From Myxococcota bacterium (lineage in GTDB: Bacteria; Myxococcota_A; UBA796; GCA-2862545), in the NCBI GenBank assembly GCA_045106515.1, contig JBGCER010000082.1, forward strand, positions 1 through 48,534: DNA of 48,534 nucleotides, written 5' to 3'. The notes beneath the pieces are model-generated. The model was not told the DNA's origin, did not search any database, and saw nothing but the letters and a program-made list of their open reading frames with translations. The position numbers and the translations under genes were made by a program. Of the stretch, positions 863 to 35,140 are shown piece after piece; positions within the stretch are counted from its first letter, which is position 1; each line of letters starts with the position of its first letter.

Positions 863-902
863 GACGGGCAGCGGCCCGGATTCTTGGCGCCTCCATTAGA
901 AA

Positions 903-928
903 CGGCCCCCACCCAAGGGTGGAGGCCG
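903..928. terminator. GC-rich hairpin between convergent genes, a possible bidirectional terminator
   Basis: cggcccccaccc-aa-gggtggaggccg forms a 10-12 bp stem with one mismatch, followed by tgttctatt. It lies between the stop at 862 (+) and the stop at 959 (-). Confidence 0.4.
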
Positions 929-958
929 TGTTCTATTCGAAGACTCCGTAGGCTCGGC

Positions 959-1606
959 CTACCACTCTTCCTCTTCCTCGGCGCCGTAGAGCAGCTCTTC
1001 GAGGAGGGCTGGCCACCAATTGGTGTCGACTTCGTACACCTTGGCGCCGCGCTCGAGCAGCGTCGTCTTGGGGGTGGCGCTCTCTGGGTTCCAACGGCCG
1101 AACACCGTTCGATTGGGGTCGGACAGCACGGGGAAGGTCAGACCCTTCTCTTTGGCGAGCTGCATGGCGGTCTCGGGCGTTCCATCATAGAACACCATAA
1201 CCGGCATAAATCCGTCGTCCTTATATTCCTGGTACACTTGCTCCAGACCTGAAGCGTTCGCGGTGCAGCTGCTTCACGTGAAGCCGCTGTATTCGACGAG
1301 GACCACCGAGTTGCAGAAGTCATGCAGCTTCCACTGCTCGCCGTATTGGTCGAGCAGAGCGAAGTTTTCTGCGACTTGCCCCTGGGTGTTTCCGGTGGAC
1401 TGCACGTCTTTGCGACACGCAGCGTCTTTGACCCAACCGCCGGCGTATGGAATGTCGGATTCGTCGAGGGGATCGGATCCCATCGCAAATTCGTCGCCGT
1501 TGTTGAAGCCGTCACCGTCCTCGTCAGCGAGAGGATCTAGCTCCTTCTCGCCTCCGCATGCGCTCAAGGTCAGAAGTGCCAACGACAGCATTGCGATGCG
1601 GGTCAT
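959..1606 (-). CDS. Thioredoxin-fold (redoxin/TlpA-like) lipoprotein with in-frame TGA at the first position of the CxxC motif; predicted selenoprotein (UxxC)
   Basis: ORFs 1274-1606 and 959-1237 share one frame, separated only by TGA at 1274-1276. The read-through gives VVLVEYSGFT-U-SSC-TANASGLEQVYQEYKDDGFMPVMV, which has the thioredoxin-fold layout around WCxxC. The N-terminus MTRIAMLSLALLTLSACGG is a lipobox signal. AAGGAGG lies 4 nt before the ATG at 1606. Confidence 0.7.
1228..1276 (-). other. UGA recoding context: candidate SECIS-like hairpins immediately 3' of the in-frame UGA
   Basis: In the mRNA, UGAAGC (1276-1271) pairs perfectly with GCUUCA (1255-1250), enclosing 15 nt. A second weaker hairpin, UCUGG/CCAGG (1247-1243 / 1232-1228), has a 10-nt loop AGCAAGUGUA. 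I have not scored either against a SECIS model. Confidence 0.35.
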
Positions 1607-1732
1607 GGAGCCTCCTTGCTTGGCCCTGGGATCATCCCAGGCTCTACGAGTGTACCGGATAGTCCACCCTTTTTAGTGAACGGATTGTCAGGCCGGCTTC
1701 CGTTGCCGTAGCAGCCGATGTTCTCGGTGGGA

Positions 1733-7150: not shown

Positions 7151-9049
7151 ATGCCGGTTCCGTCGGGTGAGACCGTCTGGATCTTGGGCGTGAACGGCGG
7201 GAGTCACGACGCCGGTGCCGCCCTCGTGCAGGTGAGGGCTGGCGAGGCCCGCCTGGTGCTCAACGCTGAAGAAGAGCGGTGGAGTCGGACGAAGCACGAA
7301 TGCGGACTCCCCGTTCATTCACTCCAAGCTGCGCTATCGCTCGTTCATTCTCAAGGGGGCAGCCCCGAGCAGATCGTCGCTGCGGCGTGTGGGTGGGACT
7401 TCGCGGCCTTTGTCGAGACGTGGGTGGGTGAGGTCGGGGCCGAGCTCCCGCGAAGCCTTGGCCTGCTTCGGGCTCAAGGCACCGTGGACGTGCCTGCTGC
7501 CCGGGGCCTGCCTCGGTGCGTTCGACGGCACATTGGGTCACACGTGCAGGGCGTGGCGGTGGTAGCTCACCACGATGCCCATGCCTGGGGATCATGGTTG
7601 CTCTCGCCTTGGGGGCAGGACGAAGAGCCGACGCTGGTGCTGGTGATCGACGGGATGGGAGACCGGGGGGCGCTGTCGGTCTACTTGGCCGCACAGGGAG
7701 ATCTGGCGCTCGTCTACCAGCACGACAGCGTCTTCGATTCCCTAGGGCTGATGTACCAGTGGCTGTCTTCGACCCAAGGCGGCTGGACCCCGTTGGCCAG
7801 CGAGGGACGCCTGATGGGAGCGGCGGCCTGGGGCGAGTGTGATCGGGCTCGGAACGCTATCTATCAAGAGCTTCGGGCGATGCTAATCTTGGGAGACGAT
7901 GGGTCGGTCGGGCTCGACCGGCAGTGGATTCAGTGGCACCTGACGCCCCGCAGACCCTATGGTGTGCCGCTCCGTAAGGTGCTTGGAGAACCGATTTCTA
8001 CCTCCAAGCTCTGGGATCCAAACGCCGTGTTGGACCCCCACAACCTTGAGGTACCCGAGCTCACCCAGCAGCGTCTAGACCGGGCAGCCGCGATCCAGCT
8101 CGTGTTCGAGGACGCGGTCCGTCACGTGCTCGACCACTGGGTGCGTCGGACTGGGGTTCGCCGGGTGGTGTGGACGGGAGGCACCGCTCTCAACGCTGTC
8201 GCTGCGCTGAGGATCGGAGAGGCCTGTCCACATCTGCAGCTGTGGACGCCCCCCATGCCCGGAGACAATGGGGTGGCGGCGGGTGCGGCGCTGCGCTTGG
8301 GCCAACACATGGGATGGATCACCACGGTGCAGCCCCTTCGCCATGCCTTCGTGGGCGGCGGTGGCCTGACCTCGACGGGCATCGAGCATGCGCTGCTCGG
8401 TTTTCACGGTTCGGTTGTGGAAATCCCAACGTCTGAGCTGCCTGAACGGCTGGCGGGATGGCTCTACGCAGGGGCGGTGGTGGGGCTCGCGCAGGGGCAA
8501 GCCGAGACGGGGCCCCGCGCTCTTGGACACCGCAGCATTCTGGCCGATCCCACGCGAGACGATGCCCTAGAGCGGATCAATCAGCATGTGAAGCGCCGGG
8601 AGGCGGTGAGGCCGTTGGCGCCCATGATGCTCGCCGAGGACGCTCAGCGATTCTTTGAAATAGTTCCGATGGAAGGCCATGATCCGTGGTCGGCTTGGCG
8701 ATGGATGGTGCGGTGCGCCCGGGCCCGGCCCGGCGCTGCGCAGGCGCTCCCCGCGGTGGTTCACGTGGACGGCAGCTCCCGTGTTCAGGTGGTCGATCCC
8801 CACGTCGATCCTCTCCTTGGGGCCACGCTTTCCCACATCAAGGCCCACACGGGCATCGCATGCTTGGTGAACACCTCGTTGAACGTGGGGGCGCCCATCG
8901 CGCACTCGGCGGAGGATGTGCTGCGGACCTTAAGCCGGGCCAAGGACCTACATGGCGTCGTGATCGTGGGCGATGACGGCCGGAGCTGGCTCGCCTTCTT
9001 GCCGGACCGCGACGCAGGTCGCGAGCTTGCAGGGTGGGTAGCGGGCTAG
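7151..9049 (+). CDS. Carbamoyltransferase, NodU/CmcH/TobZ family
   Basis: Motifs seen: the N-terminal WILGVNGGSHDAGAALV, VVHVDGSSRVQVV and CLVNTSLNVGAPI. I placed the start at ATG 7151. An in-frame GTG at 7082 overlapping the Rieske stop is an alternative. The track ORF start at 6857 overlaps the Rieske gene and I rejected it. Confidence 0.8.
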   Translation: MPVPSGETVWILGVNGGSHDAGAALVQVRAGEARLVLNAEEERWSRTKHECGLPVHSLQAALSLVHSQGGSPEQIVAAACGWDFAAFVETWVGEVGAELPRSLGLLRAQGTVDVPAARGLPRCVRRHIGSHVQGVAVVAHHDAHAWGSWLLSPWGQDEEPTLVLVIDGMGDRGALSVYLAAQGDLALVYQHDSVFDSLGLMYQWLSSTQGGWTPLASEGRLMGAAAWGECDRARNAIYQELRAMLILGDDGSVGLDRQWIQWHLTPRRPYGVPLRKVLGEPISTSKLWDPNAVLDPHNLEVPELTQQRLDRAAAIQLVFEDAVRHVLDHWVRRTGVRRVVWTGGTALNAVAALRIGEACPHLQLWTPPMPGDNGVAAGAALRLGQHMGWITTVQPLRHAFVGGGGLTSTGIEHALLGFHGSVVEIPTSELPERLAGWLYAGAVVGLAQGQAETGPRALGHRSILADPTRDDALERINQHVKRREAVRPLAPMMLAEDAQRFFEIVPMEGHDPWSAWRWMVRCARARPGAAQALPAVVHVDGSSRVQVVDPHVDPLLGATLSHIKAHTGIACLVNTSLNVGAPIAHSAEDVLRTLSRAKDLHGVVIVGDDGRSWLAFLPDRDAGRELAGWVAG

Positions 9050-9058
9050 TCGACCGCC

Positions 9059-10202: not shown

Positions 10203-10379
10203 TCACGGGGTCTGGGCCTCGGCTTGTTCGAGCTCCTTCTGCATCTCCTCGGCCGCCGCGTAGAGCTTGGCTGCTGCGACCACGTCGCCGCTGCGCTGCA
10301 CATCGCGCGCCTTCTCCATAGTGGCCAAGTACTTCTTCTTGAGGGCTTTGGTGGGGTCGGTCTTGAACAGGCCAAACAT
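10203..10379 (-). CDS. Small 58-aa protein MFGLFKTDPTKALKKKYLATMEKARDVQRSGDVVAAAKLYAAAEEMQKELEQAEAQTP (Lacal_2735/DUF6435-like, from memory)
   Basis: It is absent from the ORF track because it is under 60 aa. I translated it by hand from the reverse strand: ATG at 10379 preceded by AAGGAGG plus a 5-nt spacer, and TGA at 10203-10205. The MFGLFK N-terminus and helical Lys/Glu-rich body match a small-protein family I recall. Confidence 0.55.
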   Translation of the reverse strand: MFGLFKTDPTKALKKKYLATMEKARDVQRSGDVVAAAKLYAAAEEMQKELEQAEAQTP

Positions 10380-10436: not shown

Positions 10437-11348
10437 TCACATCAAGATGCCTTGCTGGTTCGGTTTGAGTAACGGTGGCAGCTCGGTCTCCCCCAAGACC
10501 TCCCGTAGATTCACTTCGATGGTCCGGCTCATTGCGTTGAGTGGAAGCCCGTTGAAGAAGAGACTGAACGGGTCTTCGAGCACTCGACCCGCCTCGGAGA
10601 TGAGCTCGAAGGACAGGCAAACCAAGATGTTGGCGGGAATGACCAGAAGTCCCAGTTCCGGCACGATCGCCCACGGGAGCAGCACGCTGAAGTAGCGAAC
10701 GAGCTGTTCGGCGATGAAGCCATAGCCTCTTGGGAGGGGTGTTTTCTTGATTCGCTCGCAGCCACCTTGAATATCAAGAAGGGCTGCGATGGTGCGGTCG
10801 AAAGACTGGAGCTGGAGGGCGTCGATGTGTCCGGCCTTGTGCAGCGCCACCAGCTCGGTCTGGTGCTGCTGGAGCAGCGCGTGGGTCATATTGCTGCGGC
10901 CCACCAAGTCGGCCACATCAGAGTCGGCCCAAATTCGAGCTATTTCTCCATCTTTCATGGGATCCTGCTTGCGCAGCAGGCATCGCAGCACGTGCACGTA
11001 TGCGGTCTGGCGGATCACCAATCGCCGAGAGGCGCTGGCGAGCTCCGGTTGCTCAAGGTCCAGGTAGGTGGTGGCTTGGGTCGCGAACATTCGGCTGCTA
11101 TTGATGAGTCGGCCCCACAGCTTTCGCCCCTCCCACCACCGGTCGTAGGCGGAGTTGGTTCGGAACGAGACGAAGATGCCGATGGCGGCGCCCACGATGG
11201 ACAGTGGGATGATCGGAATGACGGCCCAATCCCAGCCCAGAGCCACGTGAACGCCTGCGGGCACGCCCGCGGCTGCTGCGTACAAGATGACCTTGGACCG
11301 TTGCCACTTGATCAGGGTCCAAACGCTACCCTTGGTGCTCATCATCAT
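10437..11348 (-). CDS. Bestrophin-like (UPF0187/YneE) ion channel family membrane protein
   Basis: FRTNSAYDRWWEGRKLWG is the family signature. The start is MMMSTKG at 11348 with GGAG upstream. The 137-aa extension in the track ORF runs antisense through the GNAT gene. Confidence 0.75.
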   Translation of the reverse strand: MMMSTKGSVWTLIKWQRSKVILYAAAAGVPAGVHVALGWDWAVIPIIPLSIVGAAIGIFVSFRTNSAYDRWWEGRKLWGRLINSSRMFATQATTYLDLEQPELASASRRLVIRQTAYVHVLRCLLRKQDPMKDGEIARIWADSDVADLVGRSNMTHALLQQHQTELVALHKAGHIDALQLQSFDRTIAALLDIQGGCERIKKTPLPRGYGFIAEQLVRYFSVLLPWAIVPELGLLVIPANILVCLSFELISEAGRVLEDPFSLFFNGLPLNAMSRTIEVNLREVLGETELPPLLKPNQQGILM

Positions 11349-11381
11349 GCTGGGACTCCGGGGCGATGACGCGGATCGCTG

Positions 11382-11864
11382 TTGTACCCCATACCGCTCC
11401 GCGACTACGGGGCGGCCGAGGAGGCGCTCGTGGCGGATGCATACACGGTGGGCATTGTGGGTGCGGAGTTCTTGCCCGATTGCTGGCAAATCCGCCGGCA
11501 GGTGTTCATTGATGGGCAAGACGTGCCTGAGTCCCTGGAGGTGGACGGGCTCGATGAGCAGTGTGTGCACGCACTCGTTCGGGTGGAGGGCGTCGCTGTG
11601 GGCACAGCCAGGCTGCGCCGTGTGGGTTCCGTCGCCAAGGTGGAACGCGTGGCGGTGTTGGAGACGCACCGGGGCTTGGGGCTCGGTCGGACCGTCATGG
11701 GCTGCATCGAGGCCGAGGCAGCCCGTCGTGGGTGGTTGGACCTCAAGCTCAACGCCCAAAAGGAAGTGGTGCAGTTCTACCTAGAGTTGGGCTACAAGCC
11801 AGTTGGCGACGAGTTCGTAGAGGCAGACATTGTGCATCAAGCCATGGTGAAGAGGCTGACCTAG
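11382..11864 (+). CDS. GNAT family N-acetyltransferase
   Basis: The acetyl-CoA motif is VAVLETHRGLGLGRTVM. The IRRQVFIDGQDVP block is typical of YjcF-like GNATs. The track start is a TTG, and the true start may be an internal GTG. Confidence 0.75.
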   Translation: MYPIPLRDYGAAEEALVADAYTVGIVGAEFLPDCWQIRRQVFIDGQDVPESLEVDGLDEQCVHALVRVEGVAVGTARLRRVGSVAKVERVAVLETHRGLGLGRTVMGCIEAEAARRGWLDLKLNAQKEVVQFYLELGYKPVGDEFVEADIVHQAMVKRLT

Positions 11865-19064: not shown

Positions 19065-19838
19065 ATGTTCCGCTTCGCCAGCCTAGGTCTGGTCCTTTTC
19101 GCTCTGACCGCCTGCGACGAGTCCGGCGACTTCTCCAACTTTGACCTGACGACGGCTCGTGAGCTGGAGATGAAGGTCGACGGGCTGAACGCCCGCGCCG
19201 ACGCCCTCGCGGAAGAAGTGAAGAAGGCGCCGCCCGCCGAGGCAGGTGATGGGGCGCCCGCTCGTGACCCCGCCCGTGAAAAGGCCGCATATGAGGCGTA
19301 CCAAGCCACAATGGCGGCGCTCCAAGGTGGGGACTACGACGCTGCGAAAGCCAAGCTCGCCGAGCTGGAAAAGTTCACGGATGTGCCGCCCGCGGTCAAC
19401 GCGGTCAAAGAGATCCGGGCCGAAATCGAGCTGATCGGAAAGCCCGCCACCGAGCTTAAGGTGGACAAGTGGTTTGTCGGTCAAGCCGGGATGGACGATG
19501 GCAAGGCCACGGTGCTCGTGTTTTGGGAGGTCTGGTGCCCCCACTGCAAGCGCGAGGTGCCTAAGCTCGAAGAGACCTACGCCAAGTACAAAGGCAAGGG
19601 TCTGAACCTGATCGGCATCACACAGGTCAACAACGGCAAGACCGACGAAGAAGTCGAGACGTTCATCGCCGAGAGCAAGGTCACCTACCCAATCGCCAAG
19701 ACCGGAGCCGACATTCCCGGCTACTACAATGTCCAGGGTGTGCCCGCGGCCGCCGTGGTCAAGGATGGAAAGATCGTCTGGCGCGGTCATCCGGCCCAGC
19801 TCTCCGACTCGCTCATCGAGGGTTGGCTGGGCTCGTAA
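19065..19838 (+). CDS. TlpA/ResA-like thiol:disulfide oxidoreductase lipoprotein (thioredoxin fold, CxxC)
   Basis: The lipobox is LFALTAC. VLVFWEVWCPHCKREVPKLEE carries the WCxxC motif. AGGAGG lies upstream of the ATG at 19065. Confidence 0.8.
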   Translation: MFRFASLGLVLFALTACDESGDFSNFDLTTARELEMKVDGLNARADALAEEVKKAPPAEAGDGAPARDPAREKAAYEAYQATMAALQGGDYDAAKAKLAELEKFTDVPPAVNAVKEIRAEIELIGKPATELKVDKWFVGQAGMDDGKATVLVFWEVWCPHCKREVPKLEETYAKYKGKGLNLIGITQVNNGKTDEEVETFIAESKVTYPIAKTGADIPGYYNVQGVPAAAVVKDGKIVWRGHPAQLSDSLIEGWLGS

Positions 19839-25234: not shown

Positions 25235-27802
25235 CTAGCGCCAGTCTCCGGCCACCACGAAGGCCGCCCACACCCATGGGGTGTTGTGGGCTTCACTCTT
25301 GAGCAAGCTGCGCTGCGCCATGGCCATCGACGTCGCCGCGTCGGTGCCCTTTGCGAGCTCGGCATAGAAGGCTTGCATGAGGGCTTTTGTGCCCTCGTCG
25401 TCGACCTTCCACAGGCTCGCCACCAGGGTCTCGACGCCAGCCCGACGGAATTGGGCTGCGAGGCCTTGGATGCTCACCACCCCGTCGCCCCCGCGGGCTT
25501 GCACGGGGCGTCCTGACTCACACGCGGACAGCACGACGATCCGAGCATGGGAGAGATAGGGTGCCAAGCCCGGAATCTCGCGGTAGCTCAGGCGGCCGGC
25601 CGCGTCGTCTCCGGCGAGGACCAGGTAGCTGCGGTTGGGTTCCACCGCGTCGATGCGACCATGGGTGGCCAAGTGCAGGGTCGTGCGGCCTTTGAGCTGT
25701 TCGAGCACGGCCTCGCGCGTGGCGCGCTCTCCCACCAGGACCGTGGACCCTCGGAACGCACCTGAGATGGCGCGGACCTCCGCTTCTGCGCCGGGAAGGG
25801 TGCCGTCTGGGTTGCCCACGAGCAACAGCGTTGGGCCCTCGACCCGCAAGGCCTGTGGCGCCCCTCGCAGGCTGCCCACGTGGCTGATGGACGCGACAGC
25901 GGCGTCTTGCATCAGGTAGCGGTCGTTGTGGCGCAGCAGGCCGAATGGCAGCTGTTTGAGGGAGCCGGCGGCGGACACCACAACCGTGGATGCGCCCTCG
26001 AGATCGCCAGCGATGGGCGTCCATAGCCATCCGCCGAGCGTCTGGGCGAGGGGGTCGAGGGCGGCGCGGTCCCGGAGGCCGGCTCGCAGGGCGCGGGTGA
26101 GCTTGGACACGGTCTTGTCGAGGGTCGCGGCGTCGACAGGTACATCGACGGTGCGCAGGCTGTTGCGGGTGAAGACCAGCAAGACCAGGCGATCTTGCAG
26201 GATGATGGGCTGCACCACCGCCACGCCTTCTGGTAGCTCCGACTGCAGCGCCTCTAGGTCTTCAGGGGCGACTCGGATCCGGGCGTCGAGGTCGCCGACG
26301 TCGGTGCGCAGGCGGTCCACGGTGTCGGCGAACTCGACACGGAGACGGGCCAGGTTGTCGCGGAGCACCATGGCGCGGATGGTCTCGCCCTTGGCCACGA
26401 CTTCGTCGCCGATCGCCTGCTGGATCGCGGCCTCTTGTTGGGCCATAGACGTCAGCTTCGGCGCGTTGGCCGGCTGCGTGCTCAGGGCGAGACGCTCCGC
26501 GGTCGCCAGGGCCTTGAGCGGCTCGCCCGCCCGGAGGTGCAGGTCAGCGAGGGCCTGGTAGACGCCGTCGTGGTCGGCGATGAACGAGGTGGACGCATCA
26601 GCGGGCAATAGTCGTCGGCGAAGCTCCAACACGTCTACGGCGGCCGTCAGGAGTTCTATGGCGCGCGCGTCGTTGTTTTGGTCTCGGGCGACGTAGCCGC
26701 GCACGACCAGGGCCTGCCATTGCACCTCTGGAAGCTCCAGCTTGATGGCCGATTTGTAGGCTTGTTTTGCCCGGTCATCTGCGGTGCTCGGGTCGGCCCT
26801 TAGCCCTTGCTGGGCCAGGCGCAGAACCACCTGCGCTTCGAGTCTTGGGTCGCGGTTTGCCTTGGCCTCGGCCAGCAGTGCGTTGAGCTGGTCGGTCGAC
26901 AGGGGCTGCACGGCGTCGAGGTCCAGCCGGACGCGCCTGGCTTGGGCCCCGCGGCCGGTCTGGGTGAAGGCCGCGACGGCGGACTCCAGGTGAGCGGCCG
27001 CGCGTTTTGCGTTGCCCGCCTGCCAAGCGAGGGCGCCTAGCAGTTGATGAATCGATCCTTGCTGGGCCAAGTCCTTGCGGTCTTGGGCCGCGGCGAGCGC
27101 CTGCTCCAGGTGCGTCTGTGCGGCCGCTGGGCGAGCGAGATCGGCCTCGACGGCTGCGAGGTTAATCAAGGTGTCGACCTGGCCGGCTTCGTCACCGATG
27201 CTCTTGTACAGGGCCAAGACCCCGTCGAGTTGCTCACGGGCGAGGCGCAGCTCTCCCCGGCGTCGGTGGCTCAGGGCGAGGTTTGCCGTCGCGTCCGCCT
27301 CGCCGGCCGGGTCCTTGAGGGCGATAAAGATCGTCCTCGCGGCGTCGAGGGCGTGGCTCGCATCCTCTACATTCCCCACCTGCAGGGAGAAGGCGCCCAG
27401 GTTGAGCGCGGCGTTCGCCGCCCCCTGAGGGTCTTTGGCTTCTTTGTAGAACGCCAGGGACTTCCGGAACGCCTCCAAGGTCGCCCTCGTGTCACCGGTG
27501 TGCATAGAAATCCGGCCATACGATAGGTATATCGCCGCATCTTTGGCTGGGCCCTTGCCGAGCCGACTGGCCTCGTTGATCACGTTCAGCGCCAGGCCGA
27601 CCCGTCCGAGTTCCCGATAGGCGGCGCTCATCTTGAGCAAGATCTCGCGTTCAGCGTCGGGGTCGTTTTGCGCCCGCGTTTGCTTGAGCGCGTCGCCCCA
27701 CGCGATGAGGGCTGCGGGGTAGTCCCCGTCGGCAAAGGCGTCGTCGCCCGTGTCGACCGGGCCCGCGACGGCCCAGCAGCACCAGAGCAAGAACCACATC
27801 AC
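25235..27802 (-). CDS. Exported TPR-repeat / CHAT-domain (caspase-like) protease
   Basis: The N-terminus MMWFLLWCCWAVAG is hydrophobic. Multiple TPR-like repeats follow. The C-terminal CHAT blocks are TLHLATHG, IVVLSACESG and LVASLWKVDD, with the His/Cys dyad intact. The start overlaps the upstream stop. Confidence 0.85.
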   Translation of the reverse strand: MMWFLLWCCWAVAGPVDTGDDAFADGDYPAALIAWGDALKQTRAQNDPDAEREILLKMSAAYRELGRVGLALNVINEASRLGKGPAKDAAIYLSYGRISMHTGDTRATLEAFRKSLAFYKEAKDPQGAANAALNLGAFSLQVGNVEDASHALDAARTIFIALKDPAGEADATANLALSHRRRGELRLAREQLDGVLALYKSIGDEAGQVDTLINLAAVEADLARPAAAQTHLEQALAAAQDRKDLAQQGSIHQLLGALAWQAGNAKRAAAHLESAVAAFTQTGRGAQARRVRLDLDAVQPLSTDQLNALLAEAKANRDPRLEAQVVLRLAQQGLRADPSTADDRAKQAYKSAIKLELPEVQWQALVVRGYVARDQNNDARAIELLTAAVDVLELRRRLLPADASTSFIADHDGVYQALADLHLRAGEPLKALATAERLALSTQPANAPKLTSMAQQEAAIQQAIGDEVVAKGETIRAMVLRDNLARLRVEFADTVDRLRTDVGDLDARIRVAPEDLEALQSELPEGVAVVQPIILQDRLVLLVFTRNSLRTVDVPVDAATLDKTVSKLTRALRAGLRDRAALDPLAQTLGGWLWTPIAGDLEGASTVVVSAAGSLKQLPFGLLRHNDRYLMQDAAVASISHVGSLRGAPQALRVEGPTLLLVGNPDGTLPGAEAEVRAISGAFRGSTVLVGERATREAVLEQLKGRTTLHLATHGRIDAVEPNRSYLVLAGDDAAGRLSYREIPGLAPYLSHARIVVLSACESGRPVQARGGDGVVSIQGLAAQFRRAGVETLVASLWKVDDEGTKALMQAFYAELAKGTDAATSMAMAQRSLLKSEAHNTPWVWAAFVVAGDWR

Positions 27803-28497
27803 AGGTCGAGCGCCGCCAGCTCAGCCTTCGCAGCAGCCAGGTTATCGTCGCTCGCTACGGCCTTCTCGAAGGATTCCCGCGCGCGAACTTTGTCTTTGCC
27901 GTCCAGGAAGATCAGGCCTTCGGAGTAGGCGACTGCCGCTTCTACGGCTTCGGGATCGTGCTGCACCAAGGCGGTGTTTGCGTCGCCGCCTCGGGTGGCG
28001 GAGGCCCCGCCCTCTTTCGCCTCTGGGGATGGGTTGCCCGCGAGGTGAGCCTTGAGCTCGTTGGCGAGTCTCTTCTCGAGGGAGAGGAACTCGGGGGCCG
28101 TACCGTTGACGCCGTGTGCGTGCACGATCTCGCCGGTCTCGACCTTGACCAGGCGGGCGTCGATTCGCAGGGTGCCAGCGAGCTCGAAGTACCCACCCAT
28201 GACGATCCACTCGGCGCCTAGCAACTTACCGACTTTGGCCGCGGTCTTCTTGTCCACCATGCCGCTGTGTCCGAGCTCGAGCTCGTCCAAGATCTGCTGC
28301 ACGCGCTGCCGCTCGACCACGGTCACGTCGGGCGTGCCTTGCAGGTCGGTGATCAGCATCTGTGCCAGCCCGACCTTGAGCGGTTCGAGCTGCTCATTGC
28401 CCTGATTGTCGAAGTAGAGGACCGCCACCCGGTCGTCGGCCGCCGAGGCGGCAATGGGCAGGAGCAGCGAAAACATCAGGAAGAAGGAGCGAAACAT
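27799..28497 (-). CDS. Periplasmic CsgG/FlgO/LpoB-like scaffold protein with C-terminal TPR-like tail
   Basis: The signal is MFRSFFLMFSLLLPIAASA. VAVLYFDNQG...VVERQRVQQILDELEL...LGAEWIVMGGY...IDARLVKVETGEI matches the CsgG-like fold pattern. The start lies 8 nt after the CHASE2 stop. Confidence 0.5.
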   Translation of the reverse strand: MFRSFFLMFSLLLPIAASAADDRVAVLYFDNQGNEQLEPLKVGLAQMLITDLQGTPDVTVVERQRVQQILDELELGHSGMVDKKTAAKVGKLLGAEWIVMGGYFELAGTLRIDARLVKVETGEIVHAHGVNGTAPEFLSLEKRLANELKAHLAGNPSPEAKEGGASATRGGDANTALVQHDPEAVEAAVAYSEGLIFLDGKDKVRARESFEKAVASDDNLAAAKAELAALDL

Positions 28498-28505
28498 AGA
28501 CACCT

Positions 28506-30230
28506 CTAGTCGATGGCCCAGCCGCGAAGTCGAATCGCGACGATGCCCAAAATCAAGGAGGTAAGGGGAACAGAGAGGTCTAGCACCAGGCCGTCGGTCA
28601 GAGTAAAAATGATGGCGCCGATCAAGACCAGCACAAGGCCGCTGGCCAAAGCCAGGGCGGTGTGCAGGTCCTCCCGAAGTCGGGTGGAGGTCAGTACGAG
28701 GCCCAGCAGTACGACCCCTGCGAGGGTCCACATGGTCCATCGGGGCGCGGATTGTACGTGTCGACCCGACAGCAGGGTGTCGATGGCGTGGGCTTGAATG
28801 CGCGCCCCATCCATGTCGGTCCGCGTGGGCAGGGGGAAGCCGTATGGGGTGGCGAAGCGGTCATCGGCTTGGCCATCGACCCGCCCCACGACCACGATCT
28901 TGCCCTTGACCTCGTTGGAGAGCCAGGTGGGGATCTTCGCGGGCGTTTCCACTCCGGCCATCCGGTACAGGGCGGGCTCTGCGGCGAGTCTCAGGAGCTG
29001 TGCCGCCTGTACGGTGGCCAGCCCATCGGCGGACTCTGGGCCTCGAAAGTTGATGGGAAACGCCCCTTCCAATGCGGGGCCCCCCGGAAGGCCGAGGTCG
29101 GCCAGTGAGGTCTTGCACGACAGCGGCCGGGGGGTGCACCCGTCGGCGAGTCGGGCCAGCAGCGTATCGGTCGATGCCCGGCCAGGGTGCGTGTGCATCC
29201 ATGCGGCGAGAAGGGCCATATGTGGCGTGATCTGCGAGGCCCCCTGCGCCTGTCCGACGCTGGCGGGCCACGGCGCGCTCAGGCGGGCTCGGTCGACGCT
29301 CTGCACCAGCTGTGTGCCGCGCACGAGGCGCTCATCGGACGAGGTCCACAGGGCTTCTTCGCCGAGGTTGGCGAAGCCAGAGGCCATGGCTTCGCCCAGG
29401 GATGCCGCCGGTCCGGGCGCGAAGTGGGCGCCGACGGCCGCCTCGGTCACGACGAAGCGGTCCGCGGCGATGACCGCCCCGTGGGCGGTGCTCGCTTGGG
29501 CCAGCCGCTCGTCTCCAGGCGCGGGAGCATGGAGCAGGAAGTCAAGAACAATGACGTTCGCACCGGCACTATCAAGTATGCTTACCACCTCTCCGAGCAG
29601 GGCTCGTGGGGTCACCTCGGGCGCCGGGTCTTCGGGGTTCCAGAGGTACAACGCCTCGGTGCCGACCGTCACCAAGACCACCTCATCCGAGGTGACGGCG
29701 GGATAGGCACCGATCAGCTCACGAGCCTTGATGTAGAGGTCGCGCATTTCCCCATTGAAGCTGGTGAATAATAGGATCGATGCCATGAGGAACGTGACGG
29801 TCGTGACCACAACTTCGTAGGAGAGATGGCGAGAGAGTCGGGTGAACGTCTGTCCGGCTTTGGGTTGATCGGGCCCAATAAGCCACCGCTCAAACCACCG
29901 TTTCGGCTTTGCCGTGTCCTGCACCTCCGGGGGAGGTGGGGGTGCGGGGGGAGGCGTCGCGTTGAATTGGGCCTCTAGGTCGTCGACCACCTGGTCGTCC
30001 GAGTCCATCGAGGCCCGGGGTGCCGGAGATGGCGTCGGCGTGAGGCGCGCGCTGGTCGGACGGGCCGGGGGCGGGGTGCCGCGGAGGACGGCCGGCGCCG
30101 GATTGGGCGTCGGGTCCCGCTGTGCGAGGGGGATGCTCGCGTCCATGGAGCGCGGCCGGAGGGGCGGCGGGGTGCCGACGGGGGCGCTCGGACGCACCGG
30201 CGGCGCGCTGTCATCGGACTCGCTGCTCAC
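28506..30230 (-). CDS. Stand-alone CHASE2 sensor-domain membrane protein with Pro-rich cytoplasmic N-terminus and no recognisable output domain
   Basis: It has an N-terminal TM helix and a CHASE2-like periplasmic region (VVLVTVGTE..., NVIVLDFLL, KIVVVGRVDGQADDRFATPYG). Three C-terminal TM helices follow, and the protein then ends. The GTG start overlaps the FecR-like stop (GTGA at 30227-30230). Confidence 0.65.
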   Translation of the reverse strand: MSSESDDSAPPVRPSAPVGTPPPLRPRSMDASIPLAQRDPTPNPAPAVLRGTPPPARPTSARLTPTPSPAPRASMDSDDQVVDDLEAQFNATPPPAPPPPPEVQDTAKPKRWFERWLIGPDQPKAGQTFTRLSRHLSYEVVVTTVTFLMASILLFTSFNGEMRDLYIKARELIGAYPAVTSDEVVLVTVGTEALYLWNPEDPAPEVTPRALLGEVVSILDSAGANVIVLDFLLHAPAPGDERLAQASTAHGAVIAADRFVVTEAAVGAHFAPGPAASLGEAMASGFANLGEEALWTSSDERLVRGTQLVQSVDRARLSAPWPASVGQAQGASQITPHMALLAAWMHTHPGRASTDTLLARLADGCTPRPLSCKTSLADLGLPGGPALEGAFPINFRGPESADGLATVQAAQLLRLAAEPALYRMAGVETPAKIPTWLSNEVKGKIVVVGRVDGQADDRFATPYGFPLPTRTDMDGARIQAHAIDTLLSGRHVQSAPRWTMWTLAGVVLLGLVLTSTRLREDLHTALALASGLVLVLIGAIIFTLTDGLVLDLSVPLTSLILGIVAIRLRGWAID

Positions 30231-34456: not shown

Positions 34457-35140
34457 GTGGATGTGATCGAGGGCATGACGACGCTGGCGGAGCGAGTGGC
34501 TCCGACATTGGCGATACCCGTCGCTTCAGCGCTGGTAGTGACGCTGTTGTGGTGGCTGACGGGCTGGAGCTGGTTCGATTTGGGGCCGTGGCCGTGGGCG
34601 ATCGGCGCCCTCGCGGTGATGATCGTGGCAGGGTCGAGGCTATGGCTCGCGGCCGGCCGACGCGCTCGGGCGAACGATGCGGTGACCGAGGTGGGCGCAG
34701 CTCTGGTTGCGCTGGCACATCATGAGCATCCATCCGGCCAACTGGACGATGTGGTGGCGGGCGCTCGACTCTTGCGCGCCCGATGGGGTCGGGACGGGGG
34801 TGGAGACGTGTCCGCGCTGCTGACCGAGTGCGCCCCCAGCGCGCCCCTCGATCGGGTGTGGGCGGCGGTCGGCCGATGCGAAGCCCTGCACGCGGGGGTG
34901 GCGGTTGAGGTGCCCTCCACGGCGCTCACTACGGTGTTCCTCGCAACGCTGCCGGTGGGCCTGGTCACCACGACCGGGTGGTGGACGGTTGCGGCGATCG
35001 CCGGCGTATCACTTGCCTATCTGGCCGTTGAGGCCGTGAGTGATGACCTGTCGCGTCCGCTGGGCGCCGGACGCGGGGCTGTGCCCGTCGATGCTGTCCT
35101 CGAAGCGGTGGAGCTGGCCTTTCCGAGAGCGGAGTCTTGA
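34457..35140 (+). CDS. Membrane protein, hypothetical
   Basis: It has several TM helices. The stop overlaps the start of the next gene (TGATG). The start is uncertain (GTG 34457 or ATG 34475). Confidence 0.45.
   Translation: MDVIEGMTTLAERVAPTLAIPVASALVVTLLWWLTGWSWFDLGPWPWAIGALAVMIVAGSRLWLAAGRRARANDAVTEVGAALVALAHHEHPSGQLDDVVAGARLLRARWGRDGGGDVSALLTECAPSAPLDRVWAAVGRCEALHAGVAVEVPSTALTTVFLATLPVGLVTTTGWWTVAAIAGVSLAYLAVEAVSDDLSRPLGAGRGAVPVDAVLEAVELAFPRAES

Follow-up and report, generated by a model that had tools for sequence, protein, structure and literature searches.

A TGA codon interrupts a gene at positions 959–1606 (minus strand) of contig JBGCER010000082.1 from a Myxococcota bacterium (assembly GCA_045106515.1). 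The whole 48,534-nucleotide (nt) stretch is referred to here as the window. Judging from sequence and comparative data, we interpret the locus as a genuine selenoprotein gene in which the in-frame TGA encodes selenocysteine (Sec, U), with a probability of about 0.9. With the same confidence, the locus would be a single gene for a Sec-containing, lipid-anchored, exported thiol-disulfide oxidoreductase of a TlpA/ResA-like branch of the thioredoxin fold. An earlier note, made from the window alone, had proposed a UxxC selenoprotein; that interpretation is now supported by Pfam matches spanning the TGA, by the alignment of U with a catalytic cysteine, by about 54 TGA-bearing relatives, and by a conserved hairpin.

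A single reading frame spans the TGA

Read on the minus strand from 1606 to 959, the locus is one frame of 215 codons. It starts with ATG (1604–1606), ends with TAG (959–961), and contains a single internal stop, the TGA at 1274–1276. The list of open reading frames (ORFs) gives two pieces in the same frame, one of 110 residues (1274–1606) and one of 92 residues with a GTG start (959–1237). The earlier note had read the two ORFs as one frame split by this TGA, with the junction VVLVEYSGFT-TGA-SSC, and direct translation confirms both points. The longer junction is VVLVEYSGFT-TGA-SSCTANASGLEQVYQEYKDDGF, and the redox motif is GFT-U-SSC.

The full-length frame is bracketed by a strong Shine-Dalgarno sequence before the first ATG and, after the last stop, by a strong terminator-like hairpin. 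The Shine-Dalgarno sequence, AAGGAGG (1611–1617, minus strand), lies 4 nt before the ATG. The hairpin (902–929, minus strand) lies about 30 nt past the final TAG and consists of a GC-rich stem of 12 bp followed by GUUUCU. The 71-nt stretch that contains it folds with an energy of −36.6 kcal/mol (z = −4.2; 0 of 200 shuffles are equally stable). A scan for consensus promoters and terminators returned nothing on the strand of the selenoprotein gene and did not flag this hairpin. It sits between the selenoprotein gene and a convergent FG-GAP ORF (8–862), and is probably a bidirectional terminator. Since it follows the last stop and precedes the convergent gene, the transcript appears to be built to span the whole 215-codon frame.

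The thioredoxin fold runs across the TGA

For Pfam searches, the read-through protein was used with U written as C. Residues 76–190 (1037–1381, minus strand) form a thioredoxin-fold AhpC-TSA/Redoxin domain, which matches PF00578 (AhpC-TSA) with 58.5 bits (cut-off 26, E = 8e-16) and PF08534 (Redoxin) with 44.4 bits (cut-off 26.6, E = 2e-11). Both matches run across the TGA, which corresponds to residue 111. The nearest solved structures are extracytoplasmic thiol-disulfide oxidoreductases of the ResA, DsbE, and TlpA types, with ResA (4nmu) matching at E = 2.4e-8.

The UGA (1274–1276, minus strand), read as U111, lies opposite the first cysteine of CxxC motifs. In the alignment with ResA 4nmu, U-S-S-C is opposite C-K-P-C of WCKPC, and in Cys-type relatives (P0003 and L016) the U column is occupied by the first cysteine of WCPPC or WCGPC. 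Thus, U falls on the first cysteine of WCxxC both in Cys-type homologues and in ResA. The second, resolving residue of the motif is Cys114 (TGC, 1265–1267, minus strand), which is invariant in the family. The earlier note had recognized a redoxin/TlpA layout with the stop at the first cysteine of WCxxC, and the Pfam matches across the TGA and the ResA alignment bear this out.

Curated equivalog models score far lower: 50 bits for NCBIfam ResA (NF002854; cut-off 170), 14.8 bits for TlpA (NF047696; cut-off 230), and 13.1 bits for the Rcas_1661 thioredoxin-like (seleno)lipoprotein (NF041057; cut-off 190). The protein matches Pfam and ResA and misses every NCBIfam cut-off, and is therefore assigned to a TlpA/ResA-like branch and to none of the curated equivalogs. 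Two other selenoprotein types were considered and rejected. A peroxiredoxin (Prx) selenoprotein has TxxU or TxxC, and the motif here is UxxC, with T110 directly before U. A TlpA disulfide reductase selenoprotein of the UGC type does not fit either, as every family member has U-x-x-C.

The TGA is conserved among relatives

A word-indexed search covering 5.8 billion proteins returned three matches. Two of them (P0001 and P0002) are proteins of 125–128 residues that end in ...EFSGFT, exactly at the position of the TGA in the window, and neither has a name or a Pfam domain on record. On their contigs, a TGA follows, and then SSCIGNAPGLE... continues in frame to a normal stop. The third (P0003) is full length and has WCPPC at the TGA position.

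Further loci were collected by scanning one genome per species and metagenome contigs from JGI and ENA, and each was aligned to the window. A TGA occupies the U column in 70 fetched loci, which represent about 54 distinct proteins with 35–69% identity and were drawn from independent assemblies in ENA, JGI, Logan, and GenBank (metagenomes and metagenome-assembled genomes, MAGs). The motifs at the TGA include FT-U-SSC, FS-U-SGC, FW-U-GAC, and FW-U-PGC. TGT or TGC occupies the same column in 44 loci, of which 6–7 belong to the family as Cys forms (with WCGPC etc.) and the remainder are distant TlpA-like proteins of Firmicutes. Some GC-rich MAG contigs among the relatives (L013, L015, L016, and L023) are titled 'uncultured Enterobacterales' or 'Rickettsiales'; these labels look implausible and were not used for taxonomy.

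We also searched a profile of the N-terminal half against 1.84 billion cluster representatives (one per 50%-identity cluster). Among the best 150 matches, at least 51 are predicted proteins whose last residue directly precedes the active site, and in about 26 the sequence runs on with WCxxC.

Both sides of the TGA evolve as protein-coding sequence. The Ser codon directly after the TGA varies synonymously among orthologues (AGC, TCG, and TCC). In nine pairs, Nei-Gojobori-type estimates of the ratio of nonsynonymous to synonymous substitution rates (dN/dS) are 0.16–0.43 over the 60 codons that precede the TGA and 0.18–0.58 over the approximately 100 codons that follow it. Ratios below 1 on both sides indicate translation of both halves in this frame, with selection acting on the protein. 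Tandem pairs of UxxC paralogues also occur, about 0.8–1 kb apart and each with its own TGA, in L017 (TGA at 10319 and 11271), L067, L068, L071, L073, and L076. Separately, a few family members (P0044, P0148, P0034, L101, and L102) have lost the whole CxxC/UxxC motif (e.g. GAMWSALSQ and SMQTNPYQ) and may be redox-inactive paralogues.

A covarying hairpin lies downstream of the TGA

Folding and family comparison place a predicted bacterial selenocysteine insertion sequence (SECIS) element at 1235–1262 on the minus strand, composed of a core hairpin (1240–1255) and a short lower stem. The core, GCUUCA-GGUC-UGGAGC, forms 6 bp, including one G.U pair, and its GGUC apical loop begins 24 nt past the UGA. 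The energy of the hairpin is −9.2 kcal/mol with the lower stem and −7.6 kcal/mol in a 38-nt context. The bacterial SECIS consensus has a loop of 3–9 nt with a G within its first two nucleotides, an upper stem of 4–16 bp, a spacing of 16–37 nt from the UGA, and a minimum free energy (MFE) of at most −7.5 kcal/mol (PMC13188914). The window hairpin and those of 46 of the 52 Sec forms fall within these published limits.

This hairpin is the 'second small hairpin' that the earlier note had placed about 30 nt downstream, and its structure is kept across relatives. The note had also pointed to a 6-bp inverted repeat, UGAAGC...GCUUCA. The repeat is present in the window, but in all close orthologues (L001, L011, L013, and L046–L057) it is broken by an A.C mismatch (GCUCCA). 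Because it is not conserved and occupies nucleotides of the 5′ arm of the conserved hairpin, we reject it as the SECIS element.

Nearly every Sec form folds into a hairpin with an apical loop starting 17–29 nt after the UGA. The loops are GGUC (14), GGA (10), GGU (9), GGC (4), GGUCU (3), and others. The stems of different subfamilies are wholly different (GCUCCA/UGGAGY, CGAGGCC/GGCCUCG, GGCCUCC/GGAGGCC, CAGAGCU/AGCUCUG, and CGCC/GGCG), and between subfamilies the position of the loop in the reading frame shifts by one codon. Across 31 distinct hairpins, each stem position shows 3–5 canonical pair types, indicating covariation; the pairs were tabulated with the loop as anchor, as a MAFFT alignment of the hairpin segments followed sequence, not structure. 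Compared with the closest relative (L046), the window carries a C-to-U change (Pro to Ser) that converts a C-G pair to U.G, so that pairing is kept in a weaker form. Hairpins with perfect stems have a mean energy of −8.3 kcal/mol, versus −3.3 kcal/mol for resampled sequences in which protein and codon usage are unchanged. A comparable hairpin is found in just one of six GC-rich in-family Cys forms.

Combining one value for each of 25 stem classes by Fisher's test, we obtain a p value of about 2e-8 (3e-7 using the worst member of each class). That these classes are not fully independent is the first of several points that weigh against reading the locus as a selenoprotein gene. The window hairpin by itself does not differ significantly from shuffles (z = −0.14) or from synonymous resampling (p = 0.15), so the significance rests on the family-wide comparison. 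The MFE fold of the naked RNA favours competing pairings, namely UGAAGC with GCUUCA and an upstream GGCUUC with UGGAGC; the MFE of the naked 86-nt region is no different from shuffles (z = 0.39) and is dominated by the non-conserved UGAAGC/GCUUCA pairing. Rfam returned no relevant match, either at gathering thresholds for the whole window or at E values up to 10 for 900–1700. Neither selA, selB, selD, nor tRNA-Sec was detected in the window or in the flanks of related loci, about 1.1 Mb in total. A neighbourhood clustering of 54 Sec-form loci gave no family-wide neighbour gene pointing to a substrate or a reductant.

In the search for the Sec machinery, a tRNA scan of 33 loci detected no tRNA-Sec, and the window contains no tRNA of any kind. 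In tblastn searches over 1.14 Mb with E. coli SelA, SelB, and SelD probes, to be taken as leads only, the only matches were to GTPase domains, in unrelated loci fetched via the TSP3 repeat. The earlier note was correct that the window lacks selA, selB, selC, and selD. We infer that this genome decodes selenocysteine.

Alternative explanations

Improbable, in our judgement, is genuine termination at the TGA, or leaky read-through that is independent of Sec. The main product would then be a 110-residue TSP3 lipoprotein, and the downstream part would arise from a separate internal start or from low-level near-cognate (Trp or Cys) read-through, stimulated by the hairpin without SelB. Gene callers indeed annotate two ORFs everywhere, and both a GTG and an ATG are available downstream of the TGA, with GGAG nearby. 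UGA-Sec decoding is usually inefficient in bacteria, and some truncated product is expected anyway. The earlier note had stated that the internal GTG lacks a ribosome-binding site. This holds in part: GGAG is present 3 nt upstream of the GTG, but the same GGAG is the 3′ arm of the hairpin. What speaks for read-through as Sec is that the TGA is separated from the first possible internal start by 12–25 codons whose protein sequence is conserved, with the invariant resolving cysteine and synonymous changes. Neither half alone makes a complete thioredoxin fold, the TGA falls exactly at the catalytic Cys column, and the G-rich apical loop and the spacing of the hairpin are specific to SelB-dependent SECIS elements.

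A pseudogene or an assembly or sequencing error, that is, a nonsense mutation or a miscalled base in an ordinary CxxC redoxin gene, is very unlikely. TGA is one base away from TGC and TGT, and the Sec machinery is not found within the window. However, TGA recurs in the same column of about 54 diverged and distinct relatives that were assembled independently, and in both copies of the tandem pairs, the downstream half is still under purifying selection, and a SECIS-type hairpin accompanies the TGA, versus one of six Cys forms. These comparative data effectively refute the error and pseudogene explanations. The same relatives show one TGA-interrupted frame in place of two genes; the recurrent TGA, the purifying selection on both sides, and the tandem pairs therefore exclude a sequencing error, a pseudogene, and two separate genes.

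The genetic code of the organism is standard. The window has a GC content of 65%, and TGA ends many long ORFs with high GC at third codon positions and with complete Pfam domains (e.g. ORFs of 1205, 945, 520, 440, and 384 residues), which makes TGA an ordinary stop codon here. A search of the window for other genes split by TGA gave off-frame noise only and no credible in-frame TGA. A genome-wide alternative code in which TGA would specify Trp or Gly (translation table 4 or 25), such as occurs in some uncultured bacteria, can accordingly be set aside as having next to no chance of being right, all the more because homologues have the catalytic cysteine, and not Trp or Gly, in the aligned position.

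Proposed mechanism

The scheme that follows for SelB recruitment, selenium insertion, cellular location, catalysis, and re-reduction is modelled on bacterial Sec decoding and on TlpA/ResA enzymes. Translation would start at the ATG at 1606, behind the strong Shine-Dalgarno sequence. When the ribosome reaches the UGA (1276–1274), the hairpin, 22–37 nt downstream, would be positioned just beyond it. The GGUC apical loop of the 1240–1255 hairpin would recruit the SelB.GTP.Sec-tRNA(Sec) complex, and Sec would be inserted in place of termination, yielding a 215-residue protein with a U-S-S-C redox centre.

The protein would then be exported and lipidated at Cys17. The selenolate of U111 may attack the disulfide of a substrate (or an oxidized Cys or Met species), and Cys114 may resolve the mixed Se-S intermediate, giving an intramolecular selenenylsulfide. 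Re-reduction would be carried out by a membrane electron shuttle of the DsbD/CcdA type, encoded elsewhere.

Lipoprotein signal, TSP3-type repeat, and an extra cysteine pair

The N-terminus is a putative lipoprotein-type signal peptide, MTRIAMLSLALLTLSAC (1556–1606, minus strand), recognized by eye. It has canonical n- and h-regions and an L-S-A-C lipobox, read directly from the sequence. The codon of the lipobox Cys17 is at 1556–1558, and this cysteine is conserved in orthologues.

Residues 28–48 (1463–1525, minus strand) form a bacterial TSP3-type repeat (DxDxDGxxDxxE) with a calcium-binding-like pattern. The assignment is based on Pfam PF18884 (E = 8e-5; 22.8 bits, just below the cut-off of 25) together with invariant D and G columns.

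In the family alignment, two extra conserved cysteines, C64 (1415–1417) and C98 (1313–1315), delimit a span at 1313–1417 on the minus strand. They co-occur or are jointly absent across the family, in Sec and Cys forms alike, and both are absent in L083/L084, L016, and P0003; their frequency is biased, as one of the metagenome scan patterns contained DFC. This pattern suggests that C64 and C98 probably form a structural disulfide. We rejected a role as Sec-specific partners, since in-family Cys forms carry both.

Genomic neighbourhood

The neighbours of the gene in the window, which include a PrmA-like methyltransferase, a DAO-family flavoprotein, and a Ser/Thr kinase, have no tie to redox partners. 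No cytochrome c maturation or Sco genes lie near the selenoprotein gene, and its FG-GAP neighbour has no relationship to a large ORF that some of the relatives have in common. A gap of 126 nt separates the Shine-Dalgarno sequence of the selenoprotein gene from the methyltransferase gene upstream. It contains a perfect 7-bp palindrome, CCUGGGA-UGA-UCCCAGG (1625–1641, minus strand), which could be the terminator of the methyltransferase gene or an operator.

About 1 kb upstream of the P0001 orthologue is an Aminotran_5 gene (NifS/SufS/selenocysteine-lyase superfamily), present in L001–L010 (about 7858–9054, plus strand, in L001) and not conserved in the window. At 19065–19838 (plus strand), the window encodes a second TlpA/Redoxin-type lipoprotein with a signal peptide, an LTAC lipobox, and an ordinary WCPHC motif, which is 24% identical to the product of the Sec gene. 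The genome thus carries both Cys-type and Sec-type envelope redoxins.

Elsewhere in the window, a CHAT-domain/TPR protein (855 residues) is encoded directly downstream of a CHASE2-domain protein (574 residues) at 25235–30230 (minus strand), and the two look like a sensor-protease pair. There are also two bestrophin-family ORFs, at 34457–35140 (plus strand) and 10437–11759 (minus strand). The first of these matches only the last 64 profile positions, so that it could be a fragment, or its start could be miscalled.

Implications for annotation

Public protein sets show this gene and its relatives as pairs of meaningless ORFs, and at least 51 of the top 150 representatives are affected. For the TSP3-repeat lipoprotein subfamily, there is no curated (NCBIfam) model, and gene callers routinely cut its members short. 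With a curated model that places U at the active site, the split ORFs would be repaired and the host genomes flagged as selenocysteine users. The 31 distinct natural SECIS hairpins, covarying in one coding context, are useful for refining models of bacterial SECIS elements. The finding leaves the understanding of Sec decoding and of thioredoxin-fold catalysis unchanged, and adds a lipid-anchored TSP3-repeat architecture to the exported UxxC selenoproteins.

Comparison with known systems

The window hairpin resembles the SECIS element of E. coli fdhF, as each is a coding-sequence hairpin just 3′ of the UGA. The small apical loop of the fdhF element is GGUC closed by A-U, CAGGUCUG, as in the window hairpin. 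Compared with the fdhF element, the stem in the window is shorter and has no obvious bulged U, and the spacing is 24 nt versus about 18 nt.

The protein shares its fold and the position of its redox motif with Bacillus ResA, Bradyrhizobium TlpA, and CcmG (DsbE). Like them, it is predicted from its sequence to be membrane- or lipid-anchored and extracytoplasmic, and would be expected to depend on DsbD/CcdA. Unlike them, it has Sec for Cys, and it scores far below the NCBIfam cut-offs.

UxxC Prx-like and TlpA-like selenoproteins have been known from marine metagenomes since 2005 (PMC1088965, Zhang, Fomenko and Gladyshev 2005), and UxxC families of the AhpC-TSA, Redoxin, and TlpA-like types are all listed in a 2026 review (PMC13188914). 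One of them, the 'thiol-disulfide isomerase-like protein' selenoprotein (TlpA-like, cd02966, UxxC), was originally described from four Sargasso Sea sequences (PMC1088965; listed in PMC13188914) and has MGB1650493.1 as its reference sequence. Compared by description, it and the window protein have in common a TlpA/ResA-like thioredoxin fold, a UxxC motif, and a marine origin. The Global Ocean Sampling (GOS) survey reported 'Prx-like 1' (pfam00578, UxxC), represented by 225 sequences from 37 samples, along with 'Prx-like 3' (pfam08534) (PMC2398784).

The operational definition, a PF00578 match together with a UxxC motif, places the window protein in 'Prx-like 1 / Prx-like thiol:disulfide oxidoreductase' (PMC2398784, PMC13188914), a family whose reference sequence is WP_010940744.1 and with which it was compared through published descriptions only. 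In common with Prx-like 1, it scores above the PF00578 gathering threshold and has a thioredoxin-like UxxC in place of the peroxiredoxin TxxU. Its family, again like Prx-like 1, is abundant in marine metagenomes, has Sec forms that outnumber close Cys forms, and has the SECIS element immediately downstream in the coding region.

It differs from Prx-like 1, as described, in its lipoprotein signal, its TSP3-type repeat, and its extra cysteine pair, and the residue before U is T, S, or G in its clade, not W. A literature search yielded no account of this combination of lipoprotein and TSP3 repeat. We raise, as a tentative suggestion that is less probable than membership in the known group, a distinct uncurated family of mainly Sec-type envelope lipoproteins that have at least one TSP3-type calcium-binding repeat, a further structural disulfide, and a TlpA-like UxxC domain, often in tandem and widespread in GC-rich aquatic bacteria. 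If so, the window protein would be a selenoenzyme exposed at the surface, with a role specific to its lineage, beyond another 'Prx-like 1' sequence.

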